64,000 bases of DNA from Pseudogymnoascus verrucosus (Eukaryota), in NCBI GenBank assembly GCA_001662655.1, contig KV460265.1. The stretch is one strand, 5' to 3'. Within the stretch, counting starts at the first letter, position 1. The number at the start of each line of letters is the position of its first letter. This document shows positions 22,544 to 45,147 of the stretch, piece by piece. The notes beneath the pieces were generated by a model that saw only the letters and a program-made list of their open reading frames with translations, was not told the origin of the DNA and did not search any database. Made by a program: the position numbers and the translations under genes.

Positions 22544-23015
22544 ATGTCTACCGAATCTTCAGCACCATCTGATGCGATGAAGTTGGGGATTGAGATGAGG
22601 AGGAAAGTCCTAGGGGAGGCTTTACTCTCAAAGCTGAAGCCAGCCGGCGAGGTAAGTGCCATGCAATTAACACGCAACTTTTTACCACGGCATTTCTAAC
22701 CAAAAACAGCCAGACATTTTCACCAAGACAAGCTCAGAATTCATAACAGAAGTCTGCTTTGCGTCATATGCCCGCCCCGGTCTCGAGCTCAAGCAAAGGT
22801 CGCTATTGAACATTGGTATCTTAACGGCACTTGGTCGAGGCCCGGAGTTGACGATTCACGTCCAGGCTGCGCTCAATGTTGACCTGACTGAAGAGGAGAT
22901 CTGCGAGGCAATTAGGCACACGATGATTTATACTGGTGTGCCTGCAGGCCGGGACGCGTTTTTGATTGCCAGCGCTGTTATTGCGGAATTGAAGGCAAGC
23001 GGAGAGCGTAAATAA
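22544..23015 (+). CDS. Carboxymuconolactone decarboxylase (CMD/AhpD-like, PcaC-like) family protein; intron 22652-22709
   Basis: Spliced product has GIEMRRKVLG...ARPGLELKQRSLLNIGILTALGRGPELTIHVQAALN..LTEEEI.EAI.H..IYTGVPAG, the PcaC-family pattern. Confidence 0.85.
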
Positions 23016-23492
23016 TTACATTTATAGACAAGGTCCATGGCTAAGACTCTGCGATTAAAGACCCTTCTCACATAGGACGTACAACGAGATAATGCATTAT
23101 TTTTATAAAGTTTTCTTGCAAGTGGATTTAAAATTGGAGAGACCGTTTTAACTTCAACGCTTTGTGAGCCTAATTGATTGTAAAGTTAATTAAAACCATA
23201 GGCTTCCTAGCACTTGCAGAACTCGTCAACACTAGATAACTTGGCGTTGGTCACTTTACATGGAACCGTTTACTTGTATCGAAAAGGAGTATCCATGCTT
23301 GCAGATCGACAAGATACAATGCGCATTACCAAAGTTGTGATTAAGAACTTTATTCCCGTCCGACTAGCCACCTCTTTCCTCAGTGTAATAAATCATAATA
23401 TCTATTCACTCACTATAGATACAGCAAACGGCCTTAGTAAAGAATAACTCTGAATATATCTGCTAACTAACTACACGCACTACATAATATTT

Positions 23493-25123
23493 TTAAACGG
23501 CATATCTAAAACCGACGAGACCCTGGATAACCTTCTGTCCCGCGTCGGCCCGCTTGTTTGCCCTGTGCAGCGTCAACATCAGAATTAAACTGATGGCAAC
23601 AATCAGGAAGTTTGCGATAAGGCAGGCGTAGATGCCAGGTCGATACAATGGGGCATCTTCTGTTCGAAAAACTGTTCCTCCAATAATCCCGCCTAATCCA
23701 CCAAAAGCCACAACAGCAGCAGAGCCAAAAGCCCTTTTCCACTGACCCCTGACGTTGTTTGACTGCCAAGTGACTATACCAGGAGTGTTGGAGTTTCCGG
23801 TACTTGCAATAAGGAAGACGCTAAAGTATCGTACGGCGGTGCCCTTAGCAAAGCCTAAGATGCAGAGACCTGGTAATATTATTAACCATGAGAGTGGCAC
23901 TGTAGATGGAGCTTTAACGTACCAATAATGCTCACGGTGGCATTTAAAAGAACAATAGGACCTCTAATGCGATATTTGTCGGAGATCCAGCCCAGCGTTA
24001 TCATTGTAATACCAGCAGCGACAAACGGAGGCGCAGTAAGACATTGTGCTTGGGCGATCGAGAAGCCCATGCTGTTTCGGAGGATGATGGGCAAGAAATA
24101 TGCCACAGCATAGTTGGTAGTTGTTGTAAGACCGAACAGAGAAGCGAATGCCCACAGCTTCAGATCTGCGGCGTTTTTCAAATACGCGCGCAGGTTAAAC
24201 TCTTCAGCAACAACATCCAGTCTGTCCTCCTCAATTCTTGCAACGAAGAATGCGACCTCCTTCTCGTTGAGAAATGTCATCCCGAAGGACTTCTTCGAAG
24301 CGTTTTCTGGGAAGTCGACAATGAAGAACAGAGAAATAAGGCCACAGACGACGGTGATTACGCCAAGCATGATAAAGATCCACCTCCAACCCGCAATGCC
24401 ACTCATACTCATAATGCCTGCCGGGGCATTTGGGTTGGCCTCAGTTGGACCAAAATGAGTGCCTAAACCAGCTCCAGATCCCAAGCCTTCCATTTGCGAC
24501 AGACCATATGCTAGGATACCCGTAAATGCACTTGCAATAGTTCCAATGAGGTAAAACAATGCGGTGCGCTTCTGCAGGTCGTACCGGGGATACCAGCATG
24601 AGAGAAGGTATACCGAACCAGGAAAAACACCAGCTTCTAGCGCTCCTAGCACGAGTCGGAGTGGTATCAATTCCCACCATTTTGTGGAAAATCCGAAGCC
24701 AATTACCACAGCACCCCATGAGACTGTGATAGCAGACAGAAAGTATCGAGGTCCAATAATCCGCATCAACACAGTCGCAACAGGCTGAAAAGCCACGTAA
24801 GTGATGAACATGACCAGGATGACTATTGAGTATTTTGTGCCATCCATGCCGAGATCTGCGTTCATTCCAGCAATTGCTGCAAATCCGAGATTATTGCGGT
24901 CCATTTGGCTGATGCAGTATATCAATCCTAGAACACAGGTTACCCGTAAGTCAACCCGGCGGATGACTTTGCGTTTTTCTGTCGGAGATAAGGCCACGAG
25001 AGCGGCATTTCTGGCACTTTCTACATCTGCTGTTGTTGGAGATTTAACGGCGTCTTCATCACCCGTGTGCATTGCCTTTTCACAGTCGCCATCGTCAGTA
25101 CTGCCATGTTGCTGGGTTTTCAT
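23493..25123 (-). CDS. MFS permease, DAL5/allantoate (anion:cation symporter) family; one intron at about 23870-23922
   Basis: RRVDLR..., DRNNLGFA, RLVLGALEAG, SCWYPRYDLQKR, GWRWIFI and a C-terminal GFRY motif; about 12 hydrophobic segments. Confidence 0.92.
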
Positions 25124-26206
25124 ATTTGAAGTCGCACGAAAGCAAGTGTTGATTGTTGATTGTTGATTGTTGAGGAGTCTTGAAGCCCGAAGAAAATGCT
25201 GTAGAGGTTGAGATATAATTATTTATATTTCATTGTTAGCCTTCTATATATGCATAATTATACTTTACCGAAGGATGTGAATGCTATGGGTATGTTGCCG
25301 AGATTATACATGTTTTGTACGAGACTATTCTGGTAAACCACCTGAAGATCTCGGGCCCATACCGAGTTGTAGGGAATGCTGGGATCAGTAATTATTGGAT
25401 CACGGCTGTCACTTGGTTCTTTATTGGCTACCAGGCCATTGCTTCCCCACACAAACCCCAGACTATTGCCTTTGCATGTACCCCGCATATCCCCGCAACC
25501 CCGGGTCTGCCGATAGTATACTGAAGTTTGTGAACCTATCGGCTCTAAATGTGGCAATCGTGATTTTCCCTCTGGGGTTAATTGCTCTATATTGTCAAAC
25601 CCCGGTATAATGCGCGGCATATGCAAGATCCAAAGAGGGTGTGCTCAGTTCTGAACTGAAGAGCTTCCGCTCCGCCGATATGCCAGCTTCGCACCAAACG
25701 GAGTTTACGCAGCAATAGCTGCCCTGGCTGAAGGCTTCACCTCTCCTGCAGAAATACGCGAATTAATTAGATAGCATAGATACATAATTACTCGTCTATT
25801 CTAGTTTGCCTGTATACTGTACTACCTGGTGACCCTTGCGCCGTTCCTGATATCACTAAAAATGTCATTTTCGCTGCCACTAGTATCGCCAGCCAGCCTA
25901 TGAATAAATTACTAGCCAGTGCAATCGCTAAACTTACATTTCAGGAGAGGGGTGTGTATAAAAGAACCTCATCTAAAATAGCACTTTAGTAAAAGCCTAA
26001 GTCAAATGCCGCAGGACGTAATTGCGGGTTTAGTGTCACTGAGGAAAATGCCAGCGATTCACCAGTCATTGGTTTGGGCAAAATAAATGAAAGAAGTCTA
26101 GGTATTTCATAATATTTATCATTCTATAGTAAAGCTATCGTGAGAAACACGGATTCTCAAAAACAGAAACAGATTATGCATTGCTTTACATAAACATCTG
26201 ACACAC

Positions 26207-27611
26207 TCATGAGAAGACGATACCTTGGTAACATTTAGTTAGCAGCTTCCCACAACAAATTATTGAAGCTCAAAACTTACCTCCGTCAACAATCATGCTC
26301 TGCCCTGTGATCATCCTCGCTTTATCGCTGGCAAGGAAGCTCACCATATTCGCGATATCCTCCGGAGTCTGTAGTTCTGTTAACAAACCGAGTCGTTTGT
26401 GTAATTATCTGCTGTTAACAGGATTGCAACATACCTGGGCCTTCTTCATTGCAGATCGGGACTGAATAGACCTCTCAAAGGCCTCGCCTTTAGCAAGTCC
26501 GGTTCTTGCTGCCACGCTTGCATCAATAGCGTCCCACATCTGTAATAAGATTTAGTATACATACTGAACGGAGGCAGAACGGGACTTACATCAGTGCTGA
26601 CAGGTCCAGGGCAATAAGCTTAATAGTTTCTTAGTTGGCTTTCATTTAGACAGCGAGCGGGGTTGACTTGCCGTTGACCTGCAATGTTGTTAGATTCTTG
26701 TTTTTTTAAACCAAATTCTGGAGACGTACATTAATTCCATGCTCTGCAAGTTCCAAAGCAACCGCCTGCGTGAGTCCTCGAACTGCCCATTTACTCACAG
26801 AGTAAGGTAACGCATTTCCCGACGTCAGAAAAAGTTAGCATATGTCGACCAGAATGCAAGGTGGCACTCACAGGTCTAAAGGCAGCAATCGATGCAGCAC
26901 CAATAATTTTACCGCCCTTGCCTTGAGCAATCATCTGTCTCCCTAGAAATTATTAGATACCCATATTTATCGGAAACGCTCACACATACCTGCTTCACGG
27001 TAACATAAGAACATGCCTCTAACGTTTACCTTGGAGTAGGGTTAGTCATGTAATCTTACAAGGGGCTGGCGAGTGGTGAGTACCTGTTGTACTTTGTCCC
27101 ATTCAGCCACGGAGACCTCAAATAGGCGCTTTGTTACGATAATTCCAGCATTTGAAACCATGACCTAACATAAGTTAGTGTTGTTGGTGTAGCTATATAG
27201 AGATATCATACGTTCAACTCCCCAAGTTGTTCCACTGTTGTGTCAACCAATCTCTTCACATCCTCCTCAACGCTTACATCCGCAACAACAACAATCGCTC
27301 GTCTGCCTATCATAGACTGTTAGCTTCCACTGGGATGTTATAATCCATCATATTCAGTCAATAGAAAATAAATGGTAGCTTTGACATCACACCTTTCTTC
27401 TCGACTTCAGCCTTGACACTTTCCATATATGCCGATTGTTGCTCGATGTCATTGATCTATTTTATTTTTTGAGATTAACACAAACCTAACTCAACTGGCA
27501 GAGTCGTAGCATGGCAAAACTAACTGCAATATCCATTCCATCATCAGCCAACTGCAAAGCAATTGCCCTTCCAATACCCCTTGAAGAACCGGTAACAATA
27601 GCGACAGGCAT
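26207..27611 (-). CDS. SDR of the acetoin/diacetyl reductase (secondary alcohol dehydrogenase) type; 12 exons, absent from the ORF track
   Basis: Manual splicing gives [25 protein letters not shown]...VSNAGI...[14 protein letters not shown]...[13 protein letters not shown]...[18 protein letters not shown]...[15 protein letters not shown]. One splice acceptor is non-canonical. Confidence 0.85.
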
Positions 27612-28201
27612 GTTGGCGGGTTGTTATGTTGTATGTAATATTCGGGTTTGATTATGGTGAGTGAGAGCAGATGACGGTTTTGAGTTATAAGTTAGAATTG
27701 TGTTATGGATTTAACTTCGCTGATAAAGTTCTTATCAATTCTAGCGCGGGGTATAACAGGATGCCAGTGCGGGGTATAATGAGTAACAGGATGACAGTTC
27801 GTTTAATCGGTTGTCGAAGCCGAAGTCACAAGAACCGAAACCGATGACGAGTTTCGGTACGAGACAACGGTAATGGCAACGACAGCGGTCCCGGTAATGG
27901 CACGTGCTTTGGAATAACGACCTGTGCAGTGGCATATGGCATATGGCATATGGAATATGTGACATTTAGCCAGTATTGATTTCATAACTTAGATATCCCG
28001 TAGCCGAGTGCGGCATCCGGCACTGTAGTTCATTCCTTTATCGTGTTAGGCGCGGCTTACTTGTACTTGAACGTTTATCACAGGTCAAGAGTGTTATATT
28101 AAAACATCCTTTCGTCCCTGTGTAATTGTTGGTCAGTATAAGCCTCAGAAAAAGGCCAAGAGAATACCCCGCAGTCTCCAACTCGAACCTCAATATCTAA
28201 A

Positions 28202-30193
28202 ATGGGCTCTTTTGAGAGTAAACTTCCCGCAGTGGTTAACGCGAGCACCGCGACCACAAATGGCGACGATACATCGTATAAAGTTCTGGAGCAACCATAT
28301 GGGACAGCTCGACAGATAAGAATCGTGACCATCGGTGCCGGCGCCAGCGGCCTCAACTTGATCAAGACCCTACGCACGCACATGACCAACTACGATCACG
28401 TCGTCTACGAAAAGAACCCAGAGGTCGGAGGAACTTGGTATGAAAATCGTTACCCTGGATGCCAATGCGACCACCCATCCCACAATTACCAATTTTCATG
28501 GAGGCCAAATCCTAATTGGACCAAATTCTCTGCCGATTCTACTGAGATCCAAGAATACCTCTGTCGACTGTGCGACGAGGAGGGCATGCGACCAGAGATA
28601 AAATTGTCCCACGAAATTATTCGGGCTGAGTGGAACGAAGATCTTGGAGAGTGGCTTTTGAAGATTAAAAACACAATAACCGGAGAGGTGTTCAATGACC
28701 ACTGTAACTTCCTTCTTAATGCTTCGGGCATTTTAAAGTGAGTTTCAATAGTATTTTTGCTATCCTACCACTGGCTAATTATGGGACAGTAACTGGAAGT
28801 GGCCTGCGATTACAGGGCTTCATGACTTCAAGGGCGAATTGGTCCATAGTGCCTCTTGGCCCGAGAACTTCGATTACAATAACAAGAAGGTTGTAGTTAT
28901 TGGGAACGGCTCATCAGGAGTCCAAATCGTACCCAAGATTCAACCCCGTATGTATCCACATCATCATATCACAGTATAAATTCTAACATTGAAATAGATG
29001 TTAAAGAGCTTGTTCATGTTATTCGCTCGTCCACATGGATTGCACCACCACAAACCGAACGAATGCTGAAAGGAAATTCCGCCGAAATTATTCAATCCAT
29101 AAAGATGGATGGCGATAAATTCACTACAGAGCAGAAAGATAGATTCAAGGCCGATAATGATTATTACAGAGGTTTTATTAAGGCAGTTGAGGAACAGGTC
29201 AATGCCAGGTTCAAGGCTGTGAGTATACCCCATATGGACCGATTTTTTATTAGGTAATGTACTCTTACTAAATTTTTGCGACCATTAGCAAGTGGATGTC
29301 AAAACATTAGGGGAAGCCAGTAGAAAGATTATGGTAGCCCACATGACAAAGGCTTTAGGCGGAAACCAAGAACTTATGGATGCCATGATTCCTAAATTTC
29401 CAGTCGGTTGCCGCAGGTTGACACCTGGAGTGGGCTACCTAGAGTCGCTTGGAAAGGAGAATATTCGGGTTGTCACACAAGGAATCGCCAAAATTACAGA
29501 GAAAGGTCTTGAGTTAACGTCCGGCGAGGTGGTCGAGGTTGATGCTATTATATGCGCAACTGGCTTCGACGTCTCTTTCTGCCCGAGATTCCCTATTATT
29601 GGCAGGAAAGGCAACCTGCAAGACACATGGAGGAACGGAATACCATCAGCATACATGTCGTGTGCGGTCCCTAATGTGCCCAACTACTTTGGTAAGTCGT
29701 CCCGCCGGTATCTTCAGTGTTCTTCTATACTGCGCCCTAAAAGAGCTTTTATTAATCTTATTACTTTGCAGTATTCCTGGGACCGAGCGCCCCAATTGGC
29801 CATGGCAGTGTCCTCACTATTTCCGAACATGTGGCCAAATATATTGTCAGCATGCTGAAAAAATGCCAGACAGAGGGCATCAAAGCCGTTCAGCCAAAGG
29901 AAGATGCTGTTCGCGACTTCACCGAGCACATCCAAGCCTTCATGCCACGGACTTCCTGGTCCGGCAACTGTCGGTCGTGGTACAAGAATGGCACAGCCGA
30001 TGGGCCCATCATTGCGCTGCATCCTGGGAGCCGCATTCACTGGTTCCACATGCTTGAGAACTTCCGAGGCGAGGACTACGAGTACACGTTGGACTCGAAC
30101 AACAGATTCCGTTTCTTAGGAAACGGGTTCTCTGTCAAAGAGGCGGAGGAGAATCCTACTTGGTACTTAGATACGCCGAATAAGTTGTTTTAG
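28202..30193 (+). CDS. Type I Baeyer-Villiger (FAD/NADPH) monooxygenase, 5 exons
   Basis: IGAGASG; GGTWYENRYPGCQCD; fingerprint FKGELVHSASWP (FxGxxxHxxxWP) in exon 2; second Rossmann IGNGSSG; GCRRLTPG; CATGFD; CRSWYK. Confidence 0.93.
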
Positions 30194-30564: not shown

Positions 30565-32647
30565 TTATTCCATACCAATTATAGGCATATCAGTCATATC
30601 AAAGGGCATCTGAAAAGAATCCCACTGCATATCACTGAAGTCCAAATTAAACATCCAATCCGAAATCTCAACTAGGTGTTCGGCCGGCAATGCTTGGTCC
30701 TGATTGTTCCCATCTTGTATGGTAGAAAGTAAATCCATACTTGCGCATAGCGTGTTCGGAAACGGGAATAATGCTTCCACGCTATCTAACAAAAAGCCTT
30801 CAAAGTCTGGGCTTTCTTGAACATCTCCGTGGTCCATATTTGTGGGCGTATGCAACGACGGCGCTGTTGCATTGTTTTCAGCCTCATGATTCTTGGCCCT
30901 TTCTACCCGATTGACACTGCTGAGTATTAATTCGGAACTTGGCGTCCTCAGAGTCATTTGTTCCAGCACCGACTTGATGATAGCAAGATTCTCCGTGAAT
31001 AAGCTCTGCTTCTCTGGCAATAACTTGATGGAGATAATCAGGGGTATGCTTGCTACCATGCAGAACCAGTTATTTATTGGCGCCAAGTAGATAACTTCGT
31101 CTCTGTAGTAGATTTCTTCAAACAGTGAGGCTATGCATGAGGCTGCCACAATTGGTGTCTTCAGAGATGCCCACGATCGGTTTGGTTTTTCGCAGAAACG
31201 GTTGATAAGAATGACACAAACGAAGTAGATAATATGTAACTCCAGCGCGGAACGTCGGTAAGGTCGACGAACCGATCCGTTGTAGAGACGTAAGTCTTCG
31301 GGCAGACCATTTATCCATTCTTTCAAAGACCCAACAATGCTCATTGCCTCTTCCAGGGTTGGCGGACATTCTAATCGGTATTGATACTGAGCAGCCGTTA
31401 TTTTTCCAAGAATGACCATAAGTTTAGTCTTATAGATAAACACTTCGTTGTCTGGATGATTAGTAGGAAAATCCTCCATAGTAGGCATCCGCGTATCAAA
31501 TTGATGGAAGCTGATAGCTGGGGGCCTGCCGTAACCCGCTGACTGAAGCTTGTCGCTATTCTAGAATAATCAGTCTGATAATATACACGAAGAAAGTACA
31601 GAGGGAGACTCACAAACAAGTGCCACCATAATCGGCGACAAATCCCAGCCCTCTTATTGTTAGTGTAGGTAGATTCCCGATGTAGACCCATGTTCAGAGC
31701 ATAACGTATTGAAACCCCGATCCAGTGCCATGTTCCATCAAGGCTTATCTGTGTTGGAACCTGTGAACTCCGGGTGGCAAGAAGACACATTGATTTCAAG
31801 ATTATGGTACTGTCTTTTTCGTGGTTAATACACAGTAACAGCTTTACATTATTGTAAAAATTGTCTGGGTGAGGTATACGGCGACTGGAGCTGTTCGAGT
31901 GACGTAAGGCGCTGCCAGCGAGACACAAACTCTGAACTAGGAGAGGTGAAAGTGGTTGAACGTCAAGGTCGGAACGGTCGAGAACTGGTATGTGTGGATA
32001 AATGTGTTTAAAGTAGGTATCGGCGAGAGCGATAATCAAGGAAGAAGATGGAATAATCGCGGCGCCAGAGACTTGGAGAATTCCTTCGCTAATATCGGTA
32101 GGAAACGTTGGTGGAGGTATGGAACTGGACCATTGTGGTAGCCCAGAAGGAGAGAACATGCACTGTTCGCCAAGATATCCCATGAGGTTGTTTGACTTTG
32201 CTGCAGGGGCGGCGGCAGCAACAGTGGGTGGTCGGTTTGTGTCTTCAAGTCCCTCCCTTTGCGGGATTGGGGACATTGTATCGCTATCATTTTCGGTCTC
32301 ATCTTCATTTAAATTGGCAGTGGAGTTGGGGCTTGCGATGAATGGCGGCGTATTCACATGCGCCGTGCGTTTGCGCCTATTGTTCCGGACCCTTTGGTGT
32401 TGATGTTAGTACATTCGCTCCCAATAGAGCACAGGCGGGGTAAACTGACTGGCATGTCTTATTCTTCCTTTTGCAGTTGTTGCATGGCCCATGGGGAAGT
32501 TGTTGAAGGTCACACTTTACCTAGATTCGAAGGTTAGAATTTTAATGAAGAGCCTCGTGGTTAACTGTGCATGCTAACCTTGCGCGAATGACATTGGATG
32601 CAAACCACGCCGGCCCGGCGCCGTTGCGGTGCTGTGAAAGGTAACAT
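30565..32647 (-). CDS. Zn(II)2Cys6 transcription factor with fungal-specific middle homology domain
   Basis: Spliced N-terminus CIQCHSRK|VKCDLQQLPHGPCNNCKRKNKTC; YFKHIYPHIPVL; A..MGLHRE; RRLWWHLF. Confidence 0.9.
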
Positions 32648-33645: not shown

Positions 33646-34876
33646 ATGGCTCCATTATTCAAAATTCCTCCTGGCGAGAGCAATGCGAGAGTTCGAATTA
33701 TCGACAGCACGGCGCGCATTGGTGGCATACCCACCACATTCTTCTTTACGCCTGACAGTGCCGTCGAAGGCTTTACCCACATGCCCACGATACCATGCTG
33801 GGTTTTCTTAATTGAGCATTCCTCAGGGAAGAAGGTACTGTTCGATCTGGGAGTTCGTAAGGACTGGAGAAACCTCTCGGTGGGGCTAAGGATTGGTGGA
33901 TATGGCTGGGATATCCAAGTCGACAGGGATGTCTTAGAGATTCTTGCCGACGAGGGTATCGCTGCCAAGGATATTAATAGTATTATTTGGAGGTATGTGA
34001 ATAATATATTTTATTCCATCCTCTTGCTACGGCTCCTGTGCGTGTAACGAAAGCCGAGAGCTAACCAGACTATTCTAGTCATATGCATTGGGATCACGTT
34101 GGGGATCCATCTTTATTCCCATCATCGACGGAACTGGTCGTTGGACCAGGCTTCAAGAAAGCCTTTGTTCCTGGCGCCCCTGCCAACCCGGCCTCTCCAA
34201 TTCTTGAGACCGATTACAAGTGAGTAGAGATTGCTCTATTAAAAATTTCCTAGGGGATTTACTCATTCCCATGCCACCTTTCAGAGACCGTGAACTTCGG
34301 GAAATCGATTTCGATCAGGATATAGGCTTGAAGGCCGGCCAACTAAAGGCTTTTGACTTTTTCGGAGACGGCTCCTTCTACCTTCTGGACACACCAGGCC
34401 ATACTATCGGCCACTTGGCAGGCCTCCTCCGCACCACCACAAACCCAGACACTTTCATAATGATGGGTGGTGATTTGTGTCACCATGGCGGGGAGCTTCG
34501 CCCATCTCCACACCGCCCTCTACCCGCTGAAATCAACCCTCATCCATGGGCAAATATGCGGCCCAGATTATGTCCAGGTGGGGTTTTGGAGGATCTACAA
34601 GAGAAGCGAGGCCGAAACAAGGACCAGGCCTTCTTTGATGTCGCCATGGGGATGGATATCCCCGAGGCTCAACGAACTATCCATAAGACACAGGAAGCTG
34701 ACGCCAGTGATGATATCTTCTTTATCTTTGCTCACGAGGATAATGTGATGGGTGTTATTGATATCTTTCCTAAGGAGGCTAATGATTGGAAGGAAAAGGG
34801 CTGGGGGGATCAGACGCGATGGGGGTTTCTTAAAGATTTTGACCCTGCTGTAGGAAACGACTCACGTCTTAAGTGA
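33646..34876 (+). CDS. Metallo-beta-lactamase-fold hydrolase (AHL-lactonase/lactamase-like), 3 exons
   Basis: LFDLG, SHMHWDHVGD (HxHxDH) in exon 2, DFFGDGSFYLLDTPGHTIGH, GGDLCHH, FAHE. Confidence 0.92.
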
Positions 34877-35399: not shown

Positions 35400-36875
35400 T
35401 CACAGAGTATATCGAAATCCCTCTAGTCCCTCAAGAATTATTCCGTACTTATCGGCCTTTCGGTTTTGATTGCGGTAATAGAGCGCCATCGATGCAGCGC
35501 CAATCGCGCACATGGAGAACGAGGTGAGTGAGGCATACAGCCCAGGCATATAGTATGGAGCATCCTGATTTCTGAACCACAGCGAAGGAGCAACCCCACC
35601 AAGGCCACCAAACATGAGTTGAAGTGGGATTCCAGCTTGGCGCTTCGCGGATCCAACGATGTTGTTGACCATAAACGCCAGCACAGCTGGAGTAGCACAA
35701 GTCGTACCCGTAATAGCGAAAAACACTCCTGTAAGCTTCATACCGGTATTGTGGCCCCAACCAATTAGTACAATGCCAAGTATTGCTAGCATCATAAACC
35801 CAACGAGAAATGGACTACGCTTGCGATATCTGTCGGCTAAGATCGAGCTTCCAATGGCACAGAGAGCTGCACAGACATACGGCGGGGTGACAAGTATTTG
35901 ACTCAATGCTACGTCGTAACCAAAACCCCTGAGGATTGATGGAGTAAAGAACGACATGGCATACGCTCCAGAAGTGATGAAGAAATGTAGTAGCGATAAA
36001 ACCCATAGTTTCCAATCAGAATAGACTTCGATGAGGACCTTGCGCGTGATTTTGTCTTCCATCTTCTCCCCTCTATCCTCCTCGAGCCGAGACTGAATTC
36101 GCGCCAGCTCATTGGGTCTAAGCCATGTTGCCTTCTCGGGAAAGTCGGAGACGAACAGGTAAATCGGAACGGCCATGCAGATAGTGAGAATTCCTGGGAT
36201 GATAAAAATCCAGCGCCATCCACGCAGACCACCGACACCCTCCATGCTGCTTAAACCGTAGGATATAATGCCACTGAAACCGGATATGAAGGATCCGGAA
36301 ATGTACCAGATAGCTATGCGTTGCTGTACCTCGTATCGCTTGTACCAAGACGATATTAGATAGACGCAAGCAGGCTAGAGACCGTCAGATATTTGATCTC
36401 ATGTCGGTTCTAATATGAGACTTACATTGAACCCGCCTTCAAAGATGCCAAGTAAAACTCTTAGAGCAATTAATTGGCTGAATGTATTCACAAATCCAAA
36501 GCACATGGCCACAGTACCCCAGCAGATAATCATGCCCGTTAACATTCTTTTGGGTCCGAATTTGCGAATGAGCGTGTTGGCAGGAAGTTCGATTAGAATA
36601 TAGGTCGGGAAGAAAGATAGGAGTGCAACTGAATAGTGGTTGCCAACAAGCTTTAGGTCGTCCACTAAGCCTGTTATCTTTGCGGTAGAAATGCTGTTTC
36701 TGTCAAATAGAGATAGAGCATAAAGAAGACACAGCCATGGTAGGACATGTAGGTCGAGGCGACGCAGGAGCTTCTTGTCCGCTTTTGGATCGAGATCCGT
36801 AGGAGTGATGGCATCTTCTATGTTCTGAATATCATCCGAGGAACCTCCGTCGTCCTTGATACCTTTGACAGCCAT
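35400..36875 (-). CDS. MFS permease, DAL5/allantoate family (second copy); one intron at about 36375-36427
   Basis: LLRRLDLHVLP, DRNSISTA, SSWYKRYEVQQR, GWRWIFI and a C-terminal GFRYTL. Confidence 0.92.
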
Positions 36876-37709: not shown

Positions 37710-38819
37710 CTATAACTTCACCAGAAGCTTGCCAGTAGTGTTCCTTCCTTCCAGCTCCTCATGAGCCCTTGGTACATTGGATAATGAATATACATCATGT
37801 ATTTTCACTTTTATCTTGCCATTCTTGATGTGATCAAGTGCACTAGTGGCGTAAAATTCAAACTCTGGTCTTGTTGCAATCATATTCTTCAGTGATGATC
37901 GCATTACAGAAACGTTTTTTTCTCCGAGCCTCTGCATCAAAGTGTCTGGAATAGGTCCACCTGAAAGATTAGCTTGACACATAGAAGCATAGGAGCATTA
38001 AACATACTTGCGACGCCAGTGAACACTACTTTACCGTTGCGCTTCGCGACGTCCATGCTACCTTCCCATGTGTCCTTTCCAACACTGTCATAGACCTAAA
38101 GGCATCAGGTTAGCAAAGAATAAACAGGAAATACACTGCAAAGAAGCTAGCATTACCACGTCAACTCCTTCCCCATTTGTGATCTCTTTCACCTGCTCAA
38201 CCCAGCCCGCGCCCGACGAGGCTCTGTAGTCAATTACATGCGTTGCTCCGTGTTCTTTGGCAAGTGCGCACTTCTCTGGACTTCCAGCAGTCCCAATAAC
38301 GATAGCTCCTATGTCCTTGAGAATTTGACACATCAATAACCCAACACCTCCTGCTGCAGCGTGGACCAACACAGTCTGGCCCTTTTGAACAGCATAAGCC
38401 TTTTTTACCAAGGATAAAGCAGTCATACCCATCAGAAGAACCGAAGCAGCGTCTCTGTCTGAAACTTCAGATGGGATTTTCACGCATGCGCCATGGTTCA
38501 CCGCGGTGTACTCGGCGTATCCACCTCGTCCCATCCAGGCGACTCTGTCACCAATTTTAAACCCCAGCAGATTTGGTTCCCGTATTGCCACAATCGTCCC
38601 AGCCGCTTCATTTCCAATAATATCTGGGAGAGATTTGGAAGGGTACACGCCGGTGCGGTAGTAGATGTCGACAAAGTTAATTCCGGCAAACGTGTTTTTA
38701 ACCAGAACCTCCCCCTCATTCAATTCCGGGAGCGGCTGAGTCTCTGAGTATTTGAGCATCTCATGCCCCCCCAGCCCAGAGAGTACTACCGATTTCATCG
38801 TAGACGGTAGTGGGGACAT
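37710..38819 (-). CDS. NADPH:quinone oxidoreductase (zeta-crystallin/MDR family), spliced
   Basis: AGINFVDIYYRTGVY, GGYAEY, VHAAAGGVG, YDSVGKDT and C-terminal GRNTTGKLL; no Zn ligands. Confidence 0.9.
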
Positions 38820-39277: not shown

Positions 39278-39691
39278 ATGGACACCACCAAAGCCACTAC
39301 TATGAAAGTGGTGCACAATTCACGCGCCGGAGTGCCGTCGGTTCCCGGCAAAACAATGGGTGTATTCACTGGCGATGTCTGGCTGGATCAGGTGATCAGA
39401 CAGGACAACATGTCTGTAGTAAATGTCAACTTTACGCCATGTTCGAGGACTAATTGGCACCGCCACGAGGGGGGCCAACTGCTGCGGGTTACGGCCGGAT
39501 CAGGATGGATTTGCGAGAAGGGAGATCAACCTCAACGGATCGCTGTAGGGGATGTTATCTGGTGTCCTCCTGGGTCTCATCACTGGCATGGTGCTGACGA
39601 CGGAAGCTATATGGTTCATGAGGCTGTTACACTAGGGAAGATCGATTGGTATGAACAAGTGACTGATGAAGAGTATGCCGCAAAGAAATAG
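39278..39691 (+). CDS. Small cupin (cupin_2, hydroxynitrile-lyase-like subfamily), intronless
   Basis: FTGDVW, FTPCSRTNWHRHEGGQLL.VT.G.GW, GDVIWCPPGSHHWHGA and DWYEQVTDEEY. Confidence 0.88.
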   Translation: MDTTKATTMKVVHNSRAGVPSVPGKTMGVFTGDVWLDQVIRQDNMSVVNVNFTPCSRTNWHRHEGGQLLRVTAGSGWICEKGDQPQRIAVGDVIWCPPGSHHWHGADDGSYMVHEAVTLGKIDWYEQVTDEEYAAKK

Positions 39692-40372
39692 GGATATTGA
39701 TACGTGGACACGGGAAATAATGTACATAGGGATTGATTAAATAGAATATGATAACACATCAAAAACCTATTAAGTAAACCTGATGCCGTCTGTTAACATA
39801 TTTTTCAGCACCGAGGGCATCTCTGGGCGAAGTTGCTACAGTTTGTCCAAGGGCTCCAAGGCGCGAACTGAAATAGCCGCCTATCGGTAATGCCACTGCC
39901 GACATGCAAAGTACGAAGTTGATTTCGCCGACGTACGCTAGTCTGCGGGGTAGGGTATGTGGGGTGGGGGGTCTGTCAGGAAATGCGGAGCCCGGACGGG
40001 TAACACGGCTCAATCAAGATAAGAATACTCGAATATACCAAACAGCATGAGTTCTAATATCGAAAGATAAAAAGTTAACAGGTGAGCCTATAGTAGTCGC
40101 ACAAATCGTCTACTGTTTTAATTAATTCAAATTTTAGGAGACCCCAACCCATTGGGATTTACAAATGATCGCAATTGATTGCGCTCATGGAGTCTAGGAA
40201 TATTCAGATAAAATTGGAAGGTATTATAGCGCTCAATCTCAGCATATAAATATAGCAGAAATAGAAACCTTGCAACTTGACCTCCTGTTATGGCGGTAGT
40301 TTTTGTTAAGGATATTATACATAACTTAGCTTCGAGATGTAGTCCAACCCGTCACACCTTCAGTGTGGCTAT

Positions 40373-41167
40373 CTAATAATTAATAAACTCATCAAAACTA
40401 TGCTCCAGACTCTTCTCTGGTGTAGTACCTGCACCCTGACAACCATCAAGCTCATGATTGCTACCAGCAATAATGTTGCATTCTATAAATGAGCTCCAGT
40501 AATCGAACCCCCCGCCCTCCCTAATCCTCTTTTTGTTCCATGATAACCAGTGGTGGTCGACTATTTCTCCTCTGAAGGGAACCATCCCTTCTTTGTCCGT
40601 GGTTGGCATGTTATTTGGTGTCATGGGGTTCATAATTTCCGGCGGGCTTTCTGCTTTGTATTCTAGATGTTCGTATCCCTCCGCGATTGTTTCTTCGTCG
40701 TCTGTTGACATTATGAGTGGTGAGTCGAGAGTTTCCGCAGCCGTTGGCGTAGGTGGTGCAGAGCCTCTAAACGAATATATATGCCGCGTTGGAGATGTGT
40801 ATGAAGAGGTGGTTGCTGCGCTAAACGGGCTATAGTACCCTTCATACTCACAACGAGGCCATGCTGAGGCTAGCGGCTTTGGGAAATCATCCGTATCTGA
40901 TGGTTCGAAATCCTCATCACTGTCGCCATCTTTCCAGTCTTGACAAAAGACAGCAGTGAACCCTGAGACCTTCTCATCGCTTTCCAGAAACCTTCGCCGC
41001 CGCTTTTGATCGTTCTTACGATTAAAGGGCCGGTTCCACTCATCAGTAAAGACGGCCACCACATGAGTTCTCTTGTTTTTATTGGTGGGCCTCTCAGCCC
41101 AACAGGATCGTTGAGGTGTACACGTCAAGCAAGGTCGACCCACTCGAATCATATTTGAGTGAGGCAT
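40373..41167 (-). CDS. Hypothetical protein or gene relic
   Basis: 264-codon ATG ORF with no recognisable motif; low-complexity acidic/Ser-rich stretches. Confidence 0.3.
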   Translation of the reverse strand: MPHSNMIRVGRPCLTCTPQRSCWAERPTNKNKRTHVVAVFTDEWNRPFNRKNDQKRRRRFLESDEKVSGFTAVFCQDWKDGDSDEDFEPSDTDDFPKPLASAWPRCEYEGYYSPFSAATTSSYTSPTRHIYSFRGSAPPTPTAAETLDSPLIMSTDDEETIAEGYEHLEYKAESPPEIMNPMTPNNMPTTDKEGMVPFRGEIVDHHWLSWNKKRIREGGGFDYWSSFIECNIIAGSNHELDGCQGAGTTPEKSLEHSFDEFINY

Positions 41168-41716
41168 CTTGGACAGGCTTTTCTGGCGTTAAATTGGTAG
41201 CGCTGGCGGCGGTATTCCACAGCTAACTTTATATCAAATGGTGCAGTCATATACTGTGCGGTATGCCTCACACATACCCCAACCGCTTTATCCCCAATTT
41301 TGTAGCAATTTGAAGCTATTCTTTTGCTTGTTGAGTGCCGGCTGTGTATAGTTGGCTCTCTTCCGACTCGTGTTGGGGCATTGCCGCATCGGCTATGGGC
41401 GGTGTGGAAGTTGGGAAGCATATCGGCAATATGTAGCCGTACTTGCCGCCCGGGCACGGCAGATCCAGATTATGGCCAGGCAATATTTGAGTTATCTTCG
41501 GATATCCAAAGTAACAATGGGAGTGCAGAAGAGGTGTTGTGGATCAAGATTATGAAGATGGTTATGTAACCAAGAGCCCAAGGTTCACCAGATTCCCTGG
41601 TATTATAGTTGGTATAAATGTTATGCTTCTATTGAATTCTGTTCGAGTTAATTGATCATTATTCTTTATTTTTCGTATTTTTTGCCAATCTGGTTGATCA
41701 CAGTCAAATATCTGTC

Positions 41717-42889
41717 ATGAGTTCTACGATACCTGATAAAATGAGGGCGGTGGTCTTCAACGGTCCATTCGACGTCAAAGTTGTGACCAAACCAACGCCC
41801 CAGATTCGCGAGCCCACCGACGCCATTCTCAAGGTCTCTTCCACTGCTTTGTGCGGCAGCGACTTGGTACGTAGTTCTTTAAATTATATCTATGCAATGC
41901 GGATATTAGATTTATCGTCCTCTCTGAATTCTCTATCATTTGCTTACTTGCGCACGCAGCATTACTATCGAGGTCACCAGAAAGCAACGCCTGGATTTGT
42001 CTGTGGGCATGAAACGGTCGGACATATAGTGGCTTTAGGCGACTCGGTCAAGAACCATCAGCTCGGTGACCATGTCGTTGTTCCCTTCTCCACTTCTTGC
42101 GGCGACTGCTTCTATTGTAATCAAGGCGAATCCAGTCGCTGTTCAAAGGCTGCACTCCTTGGGTGTATCACACCGACATTTTCTTTGGACGGAGGGCAAG
42201 CGGAATATCTCCTAGTACCGAATGCGACATCGTCGTTGGTGAAAGCCCCGTCAAGGATTGCAGACGACTTGCTCGTTTTGATGGCAGATGTGTTCCCAAC
42301 TGGATATTTCGCCGCCAGCCGATTTCTCAAAGACCTATCCGAAAAGCAACAGGGAGATACTGTAGCTGTGGTTCTTGGGTGTGGTCCTGTAGGGATTTGC
42401 GCAATCGCTTCAGCTCTCCATCTCACCAATAACAAAGCCAAGGTCTTTGCAGTGGACTCGATCCCAGAACGGCTGGAAGCAGCCAAGAAATTAGGTGCAA
42501 TTCCGATCAATTTGTTAGACAACCCAGTTGAGAAGATCAAGGAAGCTTCATCTGGCCGCGGTGCAGACGTTGTAATGGAAGTTGTCGGCCACGCCGACGC
42601 TCTCGAGCTGGCCTTTGATATGATCCGCCCCTTCGGCAAAATTTCTAGTGTGGGAGTGCACAATGAACATATCAGCTTCCCAGGCTTTGCTCTATACTCG
42701 AAAAATGTGACATTGGCCTTTGGCCGGTGTCCTGTACGGAGTCTGTTTGACGAGACTGCTGCGGTATTGGAGGAATTACAGGACAAGCTTCTCTTCTTGT
42801 GCCAGAACAAAATGTCTCTTGAGGAGGCTCCGGAGGCTTTCAAGTTATTCGAGAAGATGAAAGTACATAAGATTTTATTTAGCGTATAA
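41717..42889 (+). CDS. Zn-dependent alcohol dehydrogenase (MDR, formaldehyde-dehydrogenase-like); intron 41867-41959
   Basis: CGSDL|H, GHETVG, structural-zinc CGDCFYC..C, ADVFPTGY, GCGPVG; a 93-nt GTACGT..CAG intron lies inside the called ORF. Confidence 0.93.
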   Translation: MSSTIPDKMRAVVFNGPFDVKVVTKPTPQIREPTDAILKVSSTALCGSDLVRSSLNYIYAMRILDLSSSLNSLSFAYLRTQHYYRGHQKATPGFVCGHETVGHIVALGDSVKNHQLGDHVVVPFSTSCGDCFYCNQGESSRCSKAALLGCITPTFSLDGGQAEYLLVPNATSSLVKAPSRIADDLLVLMADVFPTGYFAASRFLKDLSEKQQGDTVAVVLGCGPVGICAIASALHLTNNKAKVFAVDSIPERLEAAKKLGAIPINLLDNPVEKIKEASSGRGADVVMEVVGHADALELAFDMIRPFGKISSVGVHNEHISFPGFALYSKNVTLAFGRCPVRSLFDETAAVLEELQDKLLFLCQNKMSLEEAPEAFKLFEKMKVHKILFSV

Positions 42890-43656
42890 AAATCTAATCG
42901 ACTTGGAAATACGAATCTTTCCCTGCTCGGTCAGACCACCAACACATGGTGACATCCTCCAAAATTTAATTGAATTCAATCCTGATATTACTTCGAGGGA
43001 GCCCAAACTCGTGCTATGATTTGGTTAAATGGTGCTATTTATATTTGTAGCATATATCAAAATCAAATATGTTTGTACAGTTACTAGAACTTTGCAACTC
43101 GTACATATTTAAAGCCTCAACTTTGTTCATTTTTTCTATTATTTTTTCCGCCTCACGTGCCGCATCTCAGCTAATATCAAGGCTTTAATTTTATGAGATT
43201 GTATCCAGAGTAAATGGTGGGGGCGGGCAGCTGTGAAACCGATGCGGAAATGTCATGGTGAATTCGGCGACCACTATGGAGGCAAAAAAGCGGCATTCGC
43301 TATTGTCCAAACCCCATCACCTCCGGCAATCACGGGTGACATTCATAGTCCCAGGAGCGCTGAACTATTCGATAGCAGCACTATTAACCGATAAAATTGG
43401 AGCGGCTTGTTATCGTACCATACTATACGGGCATGTAGCGCGTGGAACGGCTCTGCCCATAGAGCCGAGGGTTTAGCCCGAGTTCTCACATCCTACCCTC
43501 CGTTCTGGGTATAAGGTTAAAGATGTAAACCCCTACAATTAGCTTCTCAAAAACATATCTACAAACTGCAACAAGATTATAGACAACCTATTTGAAGACG
43601 TGCCCATATCAAACTTTACCCTCATCCGTGCCAGAACAATTCCCGCACAATTCACC

Positions 43657-45147
43657 ATGGGCGACGCTCACGCACCTTTTGTGCACCCAGAGAGCATCAA
43701 GGCGGCTCTTAAGGACAAGTCCATCCTGCATGAGAAATCATTTATTGGCGGCGAGTGGGTGAGCGGGAGCACCACTTTTCCCGTCTATGATCCTGCCACC
43801 AACAAGATTATCGCCAACATCCCCAGCCTGTCAACGGAGCATTTCACCACTGCAATTGAACATGCACACAGAGAGTTCAAAACATTCAGAAACACAAAGG
43901 AGACCGTTCGAGCAAAGATGCTTCATAGTTGGGCGGCGCTCATACGTCAACATGCCGAGGATCTTGGCGTGCTCCTGACAATGGAGAATGGGAAGACACT
44001 GGCGGAGGCGCGCGGTGAAGTGGAATACGGTGCCACATTTATCAGTTGGTTTGCGGAAGAAGCGGTGCGGTCATACGGGGATATCATTCCGTCTCAGCAC
44101 AAAGGCAGCACGAATCTGGTTATACGCCAACCTATTGGTGTCTGTGGTATCATTGCGCCCTGGAACTTCCCCATCGCGATGATTACGCGGAAGATAGCAC
44201 CCGCAATTGCGGCAGGATGCACAGTCGTTGTAAAGCCGCCGAGCGAGACGCCACTGTGTACTTTGGCGTTAACTGCACTAGCCGTGCAGGCTGGCATTCC
44301 GCCGAACGTCATCCAAGTCGTTACGACAAAAGACCGGAATGCCATCACAGAGCTTTATACGCACCCGCTAGTGAAGAAAGTTAGTTTCACGGGCTCCACC
44401 GGAGTCGGCAAACTCATCACCAAAATGGCGGCGGGGACAATGAAGAAGGTCAGCATGGAACTCGGCGGAAACGCGCCGTACATCGTGTTCGACGATGCTG
44501 ACATTGACATTGCTGTCGCTGGCATGCTGGCATGCAAGTTTCGCTGCAGTGGGCAGACATGTGTCTGTGCAAACCGGATATATGTGCAAAGCGGAATTCA
44601 CGATGAGTTTGTGGCGAAGTTGACAAGGCGCATGTCTTCCTTCAAGATTGGCAGTGGGCTCGACCCAACTGTGACACACGGCCCCCTGGTCAATATGGCA
44701 GGGGTGAAGAAGATGAGAGAGCATATTTATGACGCAGTATCCAAAGGGGCCAAACTTGTCGTTGGAGGCACAAGTCCAGACTCAGAGGCCTACCTGATCG
44801 AGCCAGCCCTACTTACGGGTGTCACATCTAAGATGCTAGTCGCACGAGAGGAGACATTCGGGCCACTCGCCCCCGTGATCAAGTTCGACACAGAGGAGGA
44901 CGTTATCGAGCAAGCAAACGATACAGAATTCGGCTTAGCCAGCTACATTTTTTCAAACGACCTGAGAAAGATCTGGAGGGTGGCGAACGCGCTTGAGGCT
45001 GGCATGGTTGGTGTTAACACGGGGGTAATCAGCGCTTGTGAGGCGCCTTTTGGTGGGATTAAGGAGAGTGGGCTAGGAAAGGAAGGTAGCAAGTATGGGC
45101 TTGCTGAGTTTCAGGTTATCAAAAACATTACACTAAGCTTGGAATGA
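43657..45147 (+). CDS. gabD: NAD(P)-dependent succinate-semialdehyde dehydrogenase-like aldehyde dehydrogenase, intronless
   Basis: PWNFP, SFTGSTGVG, ELGGNAP, SGQTCVC (catalytic Cys), EETFGP and PFGGIKESGLGKEGSKYG; first ATG at 43657. Confidence 0.92.
   Translation: MGDAHAPFVHPESIKAALKDKSILHEKSFIGGEWVSGSTTFPVYDPATNKIIANIPSLSTEHFTTAIEHAHREFKTFRNTKETVRAKMLHSWAALIRQHAEDLGVLLTMENGKTLAEARGEVEYGATFISWFAEEAVRSYGDIIPSQHKGSTNLVIRQPIGVCGIIAPWNFPIAMITRKIAPAIAAGCTVVVKPPSETPLCTLALTALAVQAGIPPNVIQVVTTKDRNAITELYTHPLVKKVSFTGSTGVGKLITKMAAGTMKKVSMELGGNAPYIVFDDADIDIAVAGMLACKFRCSGQTCVCANRIYVQSGIHDEFVAKLTRRMSSFKIGSGLDPTVTHGPLVNMAGVKKMREHIYDAVSKGAKLVVGGTSPDSEAYLIEPALLTGVTSKMLVAREETFGPLAPVIKFDTEEDVIEQANDTEFGLASYIFSNDLRKIWRVANALEAGMVGVNTGVISACEAPFGGIKESGLGKEGSKYGLAEFQVIKNITLSLE

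Follow-up and report, generated by a model that had tools for sequence, protein, structure and literature searches.

Gene content of the block

The window, i.e. the whole stretch of 64,000 nucleotides of Pseudogymnoascus analysed here, holds a block that the earlier note described as eleven tightly packed genes. The count stands: the coordinates hold for all 11 listed genes, nine of which have introns, and the spliced models are free of internal stops. The packing needs a correction: intergenic gaps span 372-1084 bp, except for 2026 bp between the cupin and alcohol dehydrogenase genes. This gap contains a twelfth ORF, absent from the earlier gene list (40373-41167, minus strand; 264 aa). It belongs to no known family (no Pfam match and no usable Atlas match), its predicted structure has a model pLDDT of 0.30, and run X3 skips 258 bases at its 3' end. 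A Pfam scan of the block returned PF02627, MFS_1 twice, Fungal_trans, ADH_N/ADH_zinc_N twice, Cupin_2 and Aldedh, and a domain scan added Lactamase_B and an FMO-like domain. Five models match database proteins with 100% identity (P0255, P0243, P0269, P0261 and P0276 for the monooxygenase, lactonase-type hydrolase, alcohol dehydrogenase, aldehyde dehydrogenase and cupin, respectively).

The type I Baeyer-Villiger monooxygenase (BVMO; 28202..30193, plus strand; 579 aa, 5 exons) has the FMO-like domain. It carries two Rossmann motifs and both type I fingerprints, FxGxxxHxxxW[PD] flanked by two GxGxxG, and [AG]GxWxxxx[FY]P[GM]xxxD (residues 45, 76, 192 and 217). Its R347-R348 align to the K-R of steroid monooxygenase, and this pair presumably holds the catalytic arginine. 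Among solved structures it is nearest to the steroid, cyclohexanone and phenylacetone monooxygenases (E about 1e-47); cyclohexanone monooxygenase (CHMO) itself is remote, with E only about 3e-47. The metallo-beta-lactamase-fold hydrolase (MBL; 33646..34876, plus strand; 359 aa), with the Lactamase_B domain, is of lactonase type. Its metal-site residues H117-H122 (HMHWDH, i.e. HxHxDH), H202, D226 and H313 are conserved in the alignment. The best Foldseek matches of its predicted structure (pLDDT 73.7) are AhlX, AiiA and 4-pyridoxolactonase, and the closest PDB sequence matches are likewise AHL lactonases and 4-pyridoxolactonase. Against the AttM/BlcC model NF045700 it scores 59.4 bits, below the cut-off of 390 bits.

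Among the dehydrogenases, the succinate-semialdehyde dehydrogenase (SSADH/ALDH; 43657..45147, plus strand; 496 aa, one exon) has PDB matches, passes TIGR01780 (649 bits for a cut-off of 646.35) and contains the catalytic Glu and Cys motifs ELGGN and GQTCVC. The zinc-dependent alcohol dehydrogenase (ADH; 41717..42889, plus strand; 359 aa) was assigned by its motifs and its best PDB match, 4cpd (E 4.5e-54). A zinc-free MDR of the NADPH:quinone/enone reductase type (QOR; 37710..38819, minus strand; 333 aa) has PRK10754 as its best NCBIfam match, obtained from the largest exon and below the cut-off. The short-chain dehydrogenase (SDR; 26207..27611, minus strand; 258 aa, 12 exons) has the TGxxxGxG, NAG and YxxxK motifs. 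Its model includes one GC-AG intron and an intron 6 (26871-26823, minus strand) without an AG acceptor, and may be mis-spliced; its alignment with bacterial SDRs discussed below (36-39% identity) is gapless over the odd junction. These motifs and folds fit the assignments as BVMO, lactonase and SSADH, the activities being predicted. The enzyme assignments of the earlier note are thereby upheld by the type I fingerprints, the lactonase folds and the SSADH score.

Two small proteins lie at the ends of the part that we call the CMD-to-cupin block. The first is a PcaC-like carboxymuconolactone decarboxylase family protein (CMD; 22544..23015, plus strand; 137 aa, 2 exons; PF02627). It scores 72.3 bits against the PcaC model TIGR02425 (cut-off 155.7), with exon 2 only (101 of 137 aa), and the AhpD-type CxxC motif is absent from the protein. 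The second is a cupin of the hydroxynitrile-lyase-like type (39278..39691, plus strand; 137 aa), assigned from PDB matches and from NF049940, where its 124.6 bits are below the cut-off of 140.

The block also encodes a Zn2Cys6 transcription factor (TF; 30565..32647, minus strand; 637 aa; six-Cys motif, PF04082), tail-to-tail with the BVMO gene, and two MFS_1 permeases of the anion:cation symporter type. Permease 1 (23493..25123, minus strand; 525 aa), which we take to be of DAL5 type, has a D-galactonate transporter as best NCBIfam match, below the cut-off; permease 2 (35400..36875, minus strand; 474 aa) is 34% identical to it. The element CGG-N4-CGG occurs in five of eight block promoters and in 0 of 200 shuffles, a weak signal since 63 patterns were tried. 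Its density is similarly weak as a signal (6 sites in 6.5 kb of the block versus 4 in 12.3 kb of control). Shared promoter 7-mers and 8-mers showed no excess over shuffles.

To the left of the block lies a fatty acid synthase (FAS) alpha/beta pair (2.9-16.9 kb), 5.6 kb from the CMD gene. Between them, a low-GC stretch contains a hAT transposase remnant (17359..17595, minus strand; PF05699, E 9.7e-13) that serves as a boundary marker. Two SDR genes at 20.1-22.0 kb were left out of the block; the one at 21235 is a one-member cluster with GC3 0.80. The earlier note had reported no PKS, NRPS or terpene backbone gene. Indeed, a scan of 44 window ORFs or stand-in proteins detected none of these domains, but the FAS pair is close. 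Could the block then be a small biosynthetic cluster supplied by this FAS, in which the MBL forms a lactone like the MpaDE hydrolase? There is a precedent in MpaDE, a P450/hydrolase lactone synthase (available part of PMC10144355). Moreover, among the matches listed, a 47% identical MBL homolog is automatically named 'Cytochrome P450 monooxygenase andK' and BVMO homologs are named moxY/stcW. We nevertheless consider this reading very improbable: GC3 is 0.69-0.78 in the FAS genes, near CPA1 and unlike the block (0.45-0.59 versus 0.69-0.82 in FAS and CPA1), the transposon remnant lies in between, no FAS domain occurs among 80 ORFs scanned around other BVMO loci, and the SSADH, the CMD and two uptake-type permeases indicate catabolism.

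Gene linkage in fungi

Runs X2, X3 and X6 are colinear with the block; in three further runs from these studies hardly any of its words occurred, which was not counted as absence. Outside Pseudogymnoascus, the whole gene set was found in no genome, and the linkage evidence consists of pairs, which span three classes. The BVMO adjoins the TF in five of the eight named genomes with a TF homolog: P. concentricum (N7517_010244/245), F. monophora (AYO21_11331/332), Thozetella (KAH8879256/255), Diplogelasinospora (KAK3935553/552) and Hypoxylon (OTA70164/163). In Aspergillus keveii the BVMO and MBL are adjacent; in A. germanicus, A. insuetus and A. heterothallicus their accessions differ by two. These cases were selected for contigs matching in size. 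The BVMOs of these pairs form one clade with that of the window (support 99). In Colletotrichum (gene calls P0158/P0163) and at locus L001, the gene after a BVMO homolog encodes a distant AttM-like MBL. A CMD gene is divergently upstream of the BVMO at locus L007 and probably L006, and a permease gene is tail-to-tail with a BVMO homolog at locus L024. Conversely, BVMO and MBL tags are far apart in F. pedrosoi, F. monophora, E. bonariae, F. multimorphosa and F. torreyae, the five genomes common to two match lists (best 120 of 692 and best 120 of 628). Across 21 metagenome BVMO loci of at least 8 kb, the TF is present in two, and the window MBL, SDR, QOR, cupin, ADH and ALDH had no match at E<=1e-6. 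The co-occurrence that the earlier note proposed to check across fungi was thus seen for BVMO-TF and BVMO-MBL pairs and in single BVMO-CMD and BVMO-permease links, never for the full SDR-BVMO-MBL-ADH-ALDH chain. The CMD-to-cupin block is, in our judgement, probably one unit.

The ADH-SSADH pair is a different matter. It may be a later addition to the block, because both genes have close paralogs (83% for ADH, 87-88% for SSADH) that lie at a distance of 7-10 genes from each other, both at a second locus of Pseudogymnoascus and in Halenospora varia. No BVMO or MBL homolog is on the paralog contigs among the matches listed, and in A. heterothallicus and A. keveii the ADH homologs listed occupy contigs other than those of BVMO-MBL. 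This opens the alternative of an accessory island shared by at least two independent modules, with ADH-SSADH an unrelated duplicate beside a genuine BVMO-TF-MBL and CMD/cupin/SDR/permease unit. The unrelated 264-aa ORF and the 2-kb gap set the pair apart from the CMD-to-cupin block, CGG-N4-CGG is missing upstream of ADH and ALDH, and both the distinct GC3 of the cluster and the flanking hAT remnant would suit an island. We regard this alternative as somewhat unlikely. The linkage of ADH-SSADH to the block is kept in Pseudogymnoascus V501, VE04, VE00 and V499 as well as in runs X2, X3 and X6, ALDH and MDR genes recur in the bacterial module described below, and the two enzymes are the steps that a lactonase product would require. 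For the claim that ADH-SSADH belongs to the same pathway as the rest, we see an even balance.

A recent transfer of single genes from bacteria was rejected, because the best plasmid matches are low (ADH 37%, BVMO 32%, MBL 31% and partial, cupin 47%, CMD 49%) and nine of the 11 genes have introns. A quick BVMO tree (61 rows, comprising 60 fungal proteins picked by hand plus a bacterial outgroup; root unsure) places the BVMO of the block in a clade whose other members are Eurotiomycetes, except for the Leotiomycete homologs; the corresponding node of the MBL tree (35 rows) has a weak support of 81. Transfer between fungi and paralog loss may equally fit this distribution.

A bacterial gene module with cupin and CMD

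The cupin and CMD mark a widespread bacterial gene module, which is new here. We scanned for cupins with patterns drawn from an alignment with four operon cupins. In the best 80 prokaryotic loci listed, many of them from related genomes, genes within 5 kb of the cupin encode a beta-hydroxyacid dehydrogenase (75), CMD (60), MBL (50), SDR (43), MFS (40), ALDH (32), MDR (5) and BVMO (5, co-oriented). No CMD lies at 5-10 kb from the cupin in these 80 loci. Four Streptosporangiaceae loci have the order BVMO, MBL, SDR, beta-hydroxyacid dehydrogenase, cupin, CMD and beta-hydroxyacid dehydrogenase on a single strand; the fifth locus with a BVMO (L139) has no MBL match. An MBL is within 10 kb in five of the six top plasmid matches of the CMD that were examined, and two weaker-scoring matches of the cupin have none.

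The window holds a cupin and a CMD of the module subfamilies together with an MBL and an SDR. Compared with the bacterial operons (L064-L066, L085, L093, L104, L127), identities are 40-54% for the cupin, 31-45% for the CMD and up to 39% for the SDR, and the MBL, ALDH and MFS types are shared. The earlier note had guessed that CMD and cupin belong to the pathway, and the operons speak for it: both genes stand there alongside those for an SDR and an MBL lactonase, with a BVMO added in five loci. There are differences. The operons carry beta-hydroxyacid dehydrogenases and often GntR, and the window lacks both: the dehydrogenase has no tblastn match anywhere in it, yet is the most constant module member. 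Furthermore, the bacterial MBLs and BVMOs are of other subfamilies than those of the window (21-30% identity over long alignments and 28-31%, respectively), the bacterial BVMOs being closer to CHMO; given this low identity, both are analogs, not orthologs. A function for the module was not found in the largely open-access literature covered.

Proposed pathway and known systems

From the observed gene set, catalytic motifs and linkages we infer reactions, their order, a substrate class and co-regulation. We would give even chances to a cluster, inducible and serving catabolism or detoxification, by which a small, substituted, probably carboxylated alicyclic compound undergoes ring opening and ends up as succinate or glutarate. 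The two anion permeases would import the substrate, most likely an acid, and the QOR would reduce a conjugated double bond, if there is one. The SDR would oxidize a ring alcohol to a ketone, the BVMO would insert oxygen to give a lactone and the MBL would hydrolyse it, while the PcaC-like CMD and the cupin may handle the carboxyl or another substituent. The open omega-hydroxy acid would then be converted by the Zn-ADH and SSADH to a C4 or C5 diacid. The TF, an old partner of the BVMO, would switch the block on.

The substrate might not be a carbocycle at all. It could be an acyclic or aromatic ketone, whose BVMO ester is cleaved by the MBL, or an N-heterocycle or lactam, with the MBL as lactamase, and the end product could be succinic semialdehyde. 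The BVMO is equidistant from steroid, cyclohexanone and phenylacetone monooxygenases, and fungal MBLs, e.g. Fusarium MBL1, hydrolyse benzoxazolinone (available part of PMC5610705). Among related BVMO loci, L015 encodes an amino acid permease as well as a class III aminotransferase, and L001 a 2OG oxygenase as well as a deacetylase. One close CMD match has a pyridoxamine transaminase and a dihydroxypyridine dioxygenase as neighbours, another a nitrile hydratase, an amidase and an SSADH. This reading is unlikely, as family scans of the block found no amidase, aminotransferase, N-acetyltransferase or ring dioxygenase, and the permeases are of anion type. Vitamin B6 degradation, prompted by the 4-pyridoxolactonase match and locus L070, was rejected: the block has no GMC oxidase or aminotransferase, the module MBL of L065 has no 4-pyridoxolactonase match at E<=1e-5, and the L065 SDR most resembles 3-hydroxybutyrate dehydrogenases.

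Returning to the ring-opening cluster, we tentatively suggest, as a possibility below even odds, that fungi and soil bacteria share an undescribed pathway, of which this cluster is the fungal version and which degrades a common natural carboxylated ring compound or lactone. BVMO, MBL lactonase, SDR, PcaC-like protein and hydroxynitrile-lyase-like cupin would act together, with different BVMO and lactonase subfamilies in fungi and actinobacteria; Zn-ADH and SSADH, duplicated from a second cluster, would replace the bacterial beta-hydroxyacid dehydrogenases. Solving such a shared pathway would assign functions to two orphan subfamilies of proteins that are widespread. If our reading is true, the fungus opens rings by a Baeyer-Villiger pathway that has its own regulator, and the substrate question is therefore directly testable by TF overexpression. 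Roles would also follow for a common fungal BVMO family now automatically named after toxin-pathway enzymes, for stand-alone fungal MBLs and for the CMD and cupin subfamilies, both orphans so far, and lactone and diacid chemistry would gain candidate biocatalysts.

The largely open-access literature covered shows no fungal cluster with such a gene set, in agreement with the earlier note, which did not recognise a described fungal pathway. The block MBL, whose homologs are automatically named after AndK among the matches listed, is presumably akin to the MpaE domain; unlike in MpaDE/AndK, it is stand-alone and the block has no P450 or PKS. The main text on the bxd cluster mentions no CMD or cupin (available part of PMC11297187), and the 3-hydroxyanthranilate cluster of A. 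terreus, apart from its BVMO and SDR, is made up of different enzymes (available part of PMC7842363). The Fusarium FDB1 and FDB2 clusters for xenobiotic benzoxazolinones have an MBL hydrolase, a transporter and their own TF in common with the block (available parts of PMC10512309 and PMC5610705). FDB2 also lists a dienelactone hydrolase, a CoA-transferase and NAT1, none found in the block, and its table, in the available part of PMC10512309, has no BVMO, CMD, cupin or SSADH. Family scans of the block ORFs found no dienelactone hydrolase, amidase or NAT1.

Among bacterial systems, attKLM/blcABC likewise combines an MBL-fold lactonase, an alcohol dehydrogenase and an SSADH. However, the block MBL is far below the AttM model (59 bits versus 390), and the block ADH is a Zn-MDR while AttL is an iron ADH. 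To our knowledge, attKLM has no BVMO, SDR, CMD or cupin. The chn/cpn series runs through ADH, BVMO, lactonase, ADH and ALDH to a diacid (available part of PMC7542165). The earlier note proposed the same chemistry here, and all five enzyme types (SDR, BVMO, lactone hydrolase, ADH and ALDH) are present in the block. It is nevertheless not a chn/cpn member: instead of a CHMO/CPMO ortholog and an alpha/beta lactonase, it has a BVMO remote from CHMO and a hydrolase with an MBL fold. ChnC and CpnC are alpha/beta hydrolases. To the chemical series that it has in common with chn/cpn, the block adds the CMD, the cupin, the QOR, two permeases and a Zn2Cys6 regulator.

Organization and conservation of the block

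The block at 22544..45147 is a real accessory cluster, conserved across the genus. The window is fungal, and the block proteins match Pseudogymnoascus database proteins at 97-100%. Spliced models could be built for all eleven genes listed in the earlier note, none with internal stops, and five are identical to database proteins. The genes run CMD (+), MFS1 (-), SDR (-), BVMO (+), TF (-), MBL (+), MFS2 (-), QOR (-), cupin (+), ADH (+) and ALDH (+), with divergent promoters common to SDR/BVMO, TF/MBL and QOR/cupin. Their tight packing, also claimed in that note, holds for intergenic gaps of 372-1084 bp, but not for the 2026 bp ahead of ADH. Inside this gap lies a twelfth ORF of 264 aa (40373-41167, minus strand), which has no family and a low-confidence structure model. 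From its 3' end, 258 bases are missing in one other sequencing run (X3), and locus-tag spacing suggests that it is called in other strains too.

Three other runs (X2, X3 and X6) cover 25,600-45,500 colinearly in long pieces. Judging from locus tags, BVMO, MBL, cupin, ADH and ALDH lie inside eight consecutive genes in genome V501, while VE04 and VE00 each link BVMO with ADH and V499 links MBL, cupin and ALDH. In V499 and VE02 the BVMO sits on a different, short contig.

A degenerate hAT transposase (17359-19500, minus strand), within a stretch of 41-47% GC located between FAS1 and the block, and two further, divergent SDRs (20073-20657, minus strand; 21235-21969, plus strand) separate the block from a FAS alpha/beta pair and CPA1 on its left. 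The second of these SDRs is intronless, has a GC3 of 0.80, forms a cluster of one member and may be a separate recent gain. The proximity of the FAS genes raises the alternative of a biosynthetic block fed by FAS, which we consider very improbable. GC3 is 0.45-0.59 in the block against 0.69-0.82 in FAS/CPA1. To the right lie a pectate lyase (48450-49560, plus strand) and a beta-carbonic-anhydrase-like gene (56868-57600, minus strand); because other genes on this side range from 0.50 to 0.66, GC3 marks accessory genes and no sharp island.

The pattern CGG-N4-CGG has one site in each of five of the eight promoter regions (CMD, SDR/BVMO, TF/MBL, MFS2 and QOR/cupin), a count exceeding all 200 shuffles, with 63 patterns tried. 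When one further intergenic region is included, there are 6 sites in 6.5 kb versus 4 in 12.3 kb of control DNA. It might be a shared regulatory site, which we take as a lead only.

Enzymes and a putative ring-opening route

The following route, of which we infer every step, is our leading reading of the block, held at even odds: the opening of a small substituted ring acid, ending in succinate or glutarate. The acid would be imported, and QOR and SDR would reduce or oxidize it to give a saturated ring ketone. BVMO would insert oxygen, MBL would hydrolyse the lactone, CMD and cupin would take off a carboxyl or other substituent, and ADH and SSADH (the ALDH of the block) would oxidize the product to succinate or glutarate.

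Both type I fingerprints are present in the BVMO, as are two Rossmann motifs. Three solved types, the steroid, cyclohexanone and phenylacetone monooxygenases, lie at about the same large distance from it (E about 1e-47), so that its sequence does not point to a substrate. In the MBL, HMHWDH, H202, D226 and H313 are conserved, and its predicted structure (pLDDT 73.7) best matches AhlX, AiiA and 4-pyridoxolactonase; against the AttM model it scores below the cut-off. An acyclic, aromatic or nitrogen-containing substrate is unlikely in our judgement. The ALDH exceeds the cut-off of the SSADH model, so the route probably passes through a semialdehyde of C4 or C5. The CMD protein is PcaC-like without CxxC, and the cupin is of a hydroxynitrile-lyase-like type, with a score under that model's cut-off.

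In the SDR gene, intron 6 (26871-26823, minus strand) lacks an AG acceptor, although a GT donor and a branch-like sequence are present; intron 8 is GC-AG. The model across the intron 6 junction aligns to bacterial SDRs without gaps. Among the rows listed (806 substitution and 37 indel rows fall outside them), the intron 6 site shows no difference from the three other runs, and seven of the eight differences in the gene are intronic (628 nt) with one exonic (777 nt). The gapless alignment and the mostly intronic differences suggest that the gene is functional despite its unusual splice site; it otherwise looks to be under selection, given the seven of eight displayed differences in introns.

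ADH and SSADH may have been recruited as a lower pathway, or may neighbour the block by chance. In five Pseudogymnoascus genomes, close paralogs (ADH 83%, SSADH 87-88%) are spaced 7-10 genes from each other; Halenospora varia has homologs at 77% and 81%, eight accessions apart. These genes (proteins P0295, P0582, P0297 and P0392; OBT91648-OBT91655 in Pseudogymnoascus, KAH6683412-420 in Halenospora) bound a second, wider-spread cluster, with 76-77% ADH homologs in the Fusarium solani group. In A. heterothallicus and A. keveii, the ADH homologs listed and BVMO-MBL occupy different contigs.

Linkage in other fungi and in bacteria

The co-occurrence across fungi expected of such a cluster was retrieved for cross-class gene pairs, but the full chain was seen in one genus only. 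The TF survey named 10 of 150 matches, picked by score against the full TF model; one of them is from Pseudogymnoascus, and eight were taken as the non-Pseudogymnoascus set. In five of these eight genomes a BVMO homolog occupies the next accession or tag; in the remaining three there is no BVMO among the 120 matches listed. In four Aspergillus species, hand-picked for signs that both share a contig, BVMO and MBL differ by one or two accessions; their tags are far apart in five other genomes found in both match lists. In a quick tree of unsure root, the BVMO of the window shares with the Aspergillus and P. concentricum enzymes a clade of nine rows (support 99) that excludes the Leotiomycete homologs.

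A metagenome scan gave 63 BVMO loci. Among the 21 of at least 8 kb, none matches the MBL, SDR, QOR, cupin, ADH or ALDH of the window at E<=1e-6, two have the TF tail-to-tail with BVMO, and many BVMO loci have unrelated neighbours in common (PP2C, patatin and helicase among them). Hence, the BVMO family lies mostly outside such clusters. In short loci, a CMD gene is divergent from BVMO (L007, probably also L006) and a permease is tail-to-tail with it (L024). This BVMO family is paired with an MBL hydrolase a second time: an AttM-like MBL, different from that of the window, lies 3' of BVMO in L001 and in two gene calls from Colletotrichum. At L001 (4101-17056) the two genes are tail-to-tail, with a polysaccharide deacetylase, an AAT-family protein and a 2OG oxygenase nearby. 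Another locus (L015:7531-18797), which may be a cluster for amine catabolism, combines BVMO and a related TF with genes for an amino acid permease, a class III aminotransferase, DUF1349 and a haem N-demethylase-like protein. That separate modules share one accessory region in the window is less likely than the single route, but is the strongest of its rivals.

Searched against plasmids by unbiased tblastn, the cupin had its top matches in operons with CMD, beta-hydroxyacid dehydrogenases (bHAD) and a transporter. The four operons examined include an AHL-lactonase-family MBL (3/4), ALDH (3/4) and SDR (2/4); two weaker matches have another context, with MBL absent. For CMD, MBL lies within 10 kb in five of six plasmid matches examined (of 15 listed). 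In species genomes we kept the best 80 of at least 506 confirmed cupin loci, using patterns from an alignment that included four operon cupins. Within 5 kb these 80 have bHAD (75), CMD (60), MBL (50), SDR (43), GntR (42), MFS (40), ALDH (32), MDR (5) and BVMO (5), with bacterial and fungal queries both used and many genomes related; CMD occurs at 5-10 kb in none of the best 80. Four Streptosporangiaceae loci read BVMO-MBL-SDR-bHAD-cupin-CMD-bHAD on a single strand. The Streptosporangiaceae operon at L085:3738-11639, with counterparts at L093, L104, L127 and L139 (the last gave no MBL match), comprises HpcH aldolase, an unknown, CMD-like, CHMO-like BVMO, MBL, SDR, bHAD, cupin, CMD and bHAD; an IclR regulator lies divergent to it. 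In Arthrobacter and Kribbella loci the module also includes a Zn-ADH. A Rhizobium plasmid cluster (L070:6598-20263) has MBL, SDR, MmgE/PrpD and CMD, together with pyridoxamine-pyruvate transaminase, amidases and 2,5-dihydroxypyridine dioxygenase.

CMD and cupin are the two ends of the block between 22.5 and 39.7 kb, and among prokaryotes the nearest relatives of both share operons with lactonase and SDR. This stretch is probably one unit, and the bacterial partnership is the best evidence for it.

Comparison with known systems

The bacterial module is an unstudied counterpart of the fungal block. Its MBL and BVMO belong to subfamilies other than the fungal ones, however, and no bHAD occurs in the window. 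The accessible parts of the open literature searched hold no description of this module, nor of the block's gene set in fungi. The proposed chemistry of the block partly resembles that of Agrobacterium attKLM, whose orthology features it lacks. From the portions available, the gene content differs from that of the Fusarium FDB clusters (PMC10512309, PMC5610705), the bxd cluster (PMC11297187) and the A. terreus 3-hydroxyanthranilate cluster (PMC7842363). As for the resemblance to chn/cpn first proposed, the orthology features of those systems are absent from the block, but the proposed series of steps is like the chn/cpn reaction series given in PMC7542165.
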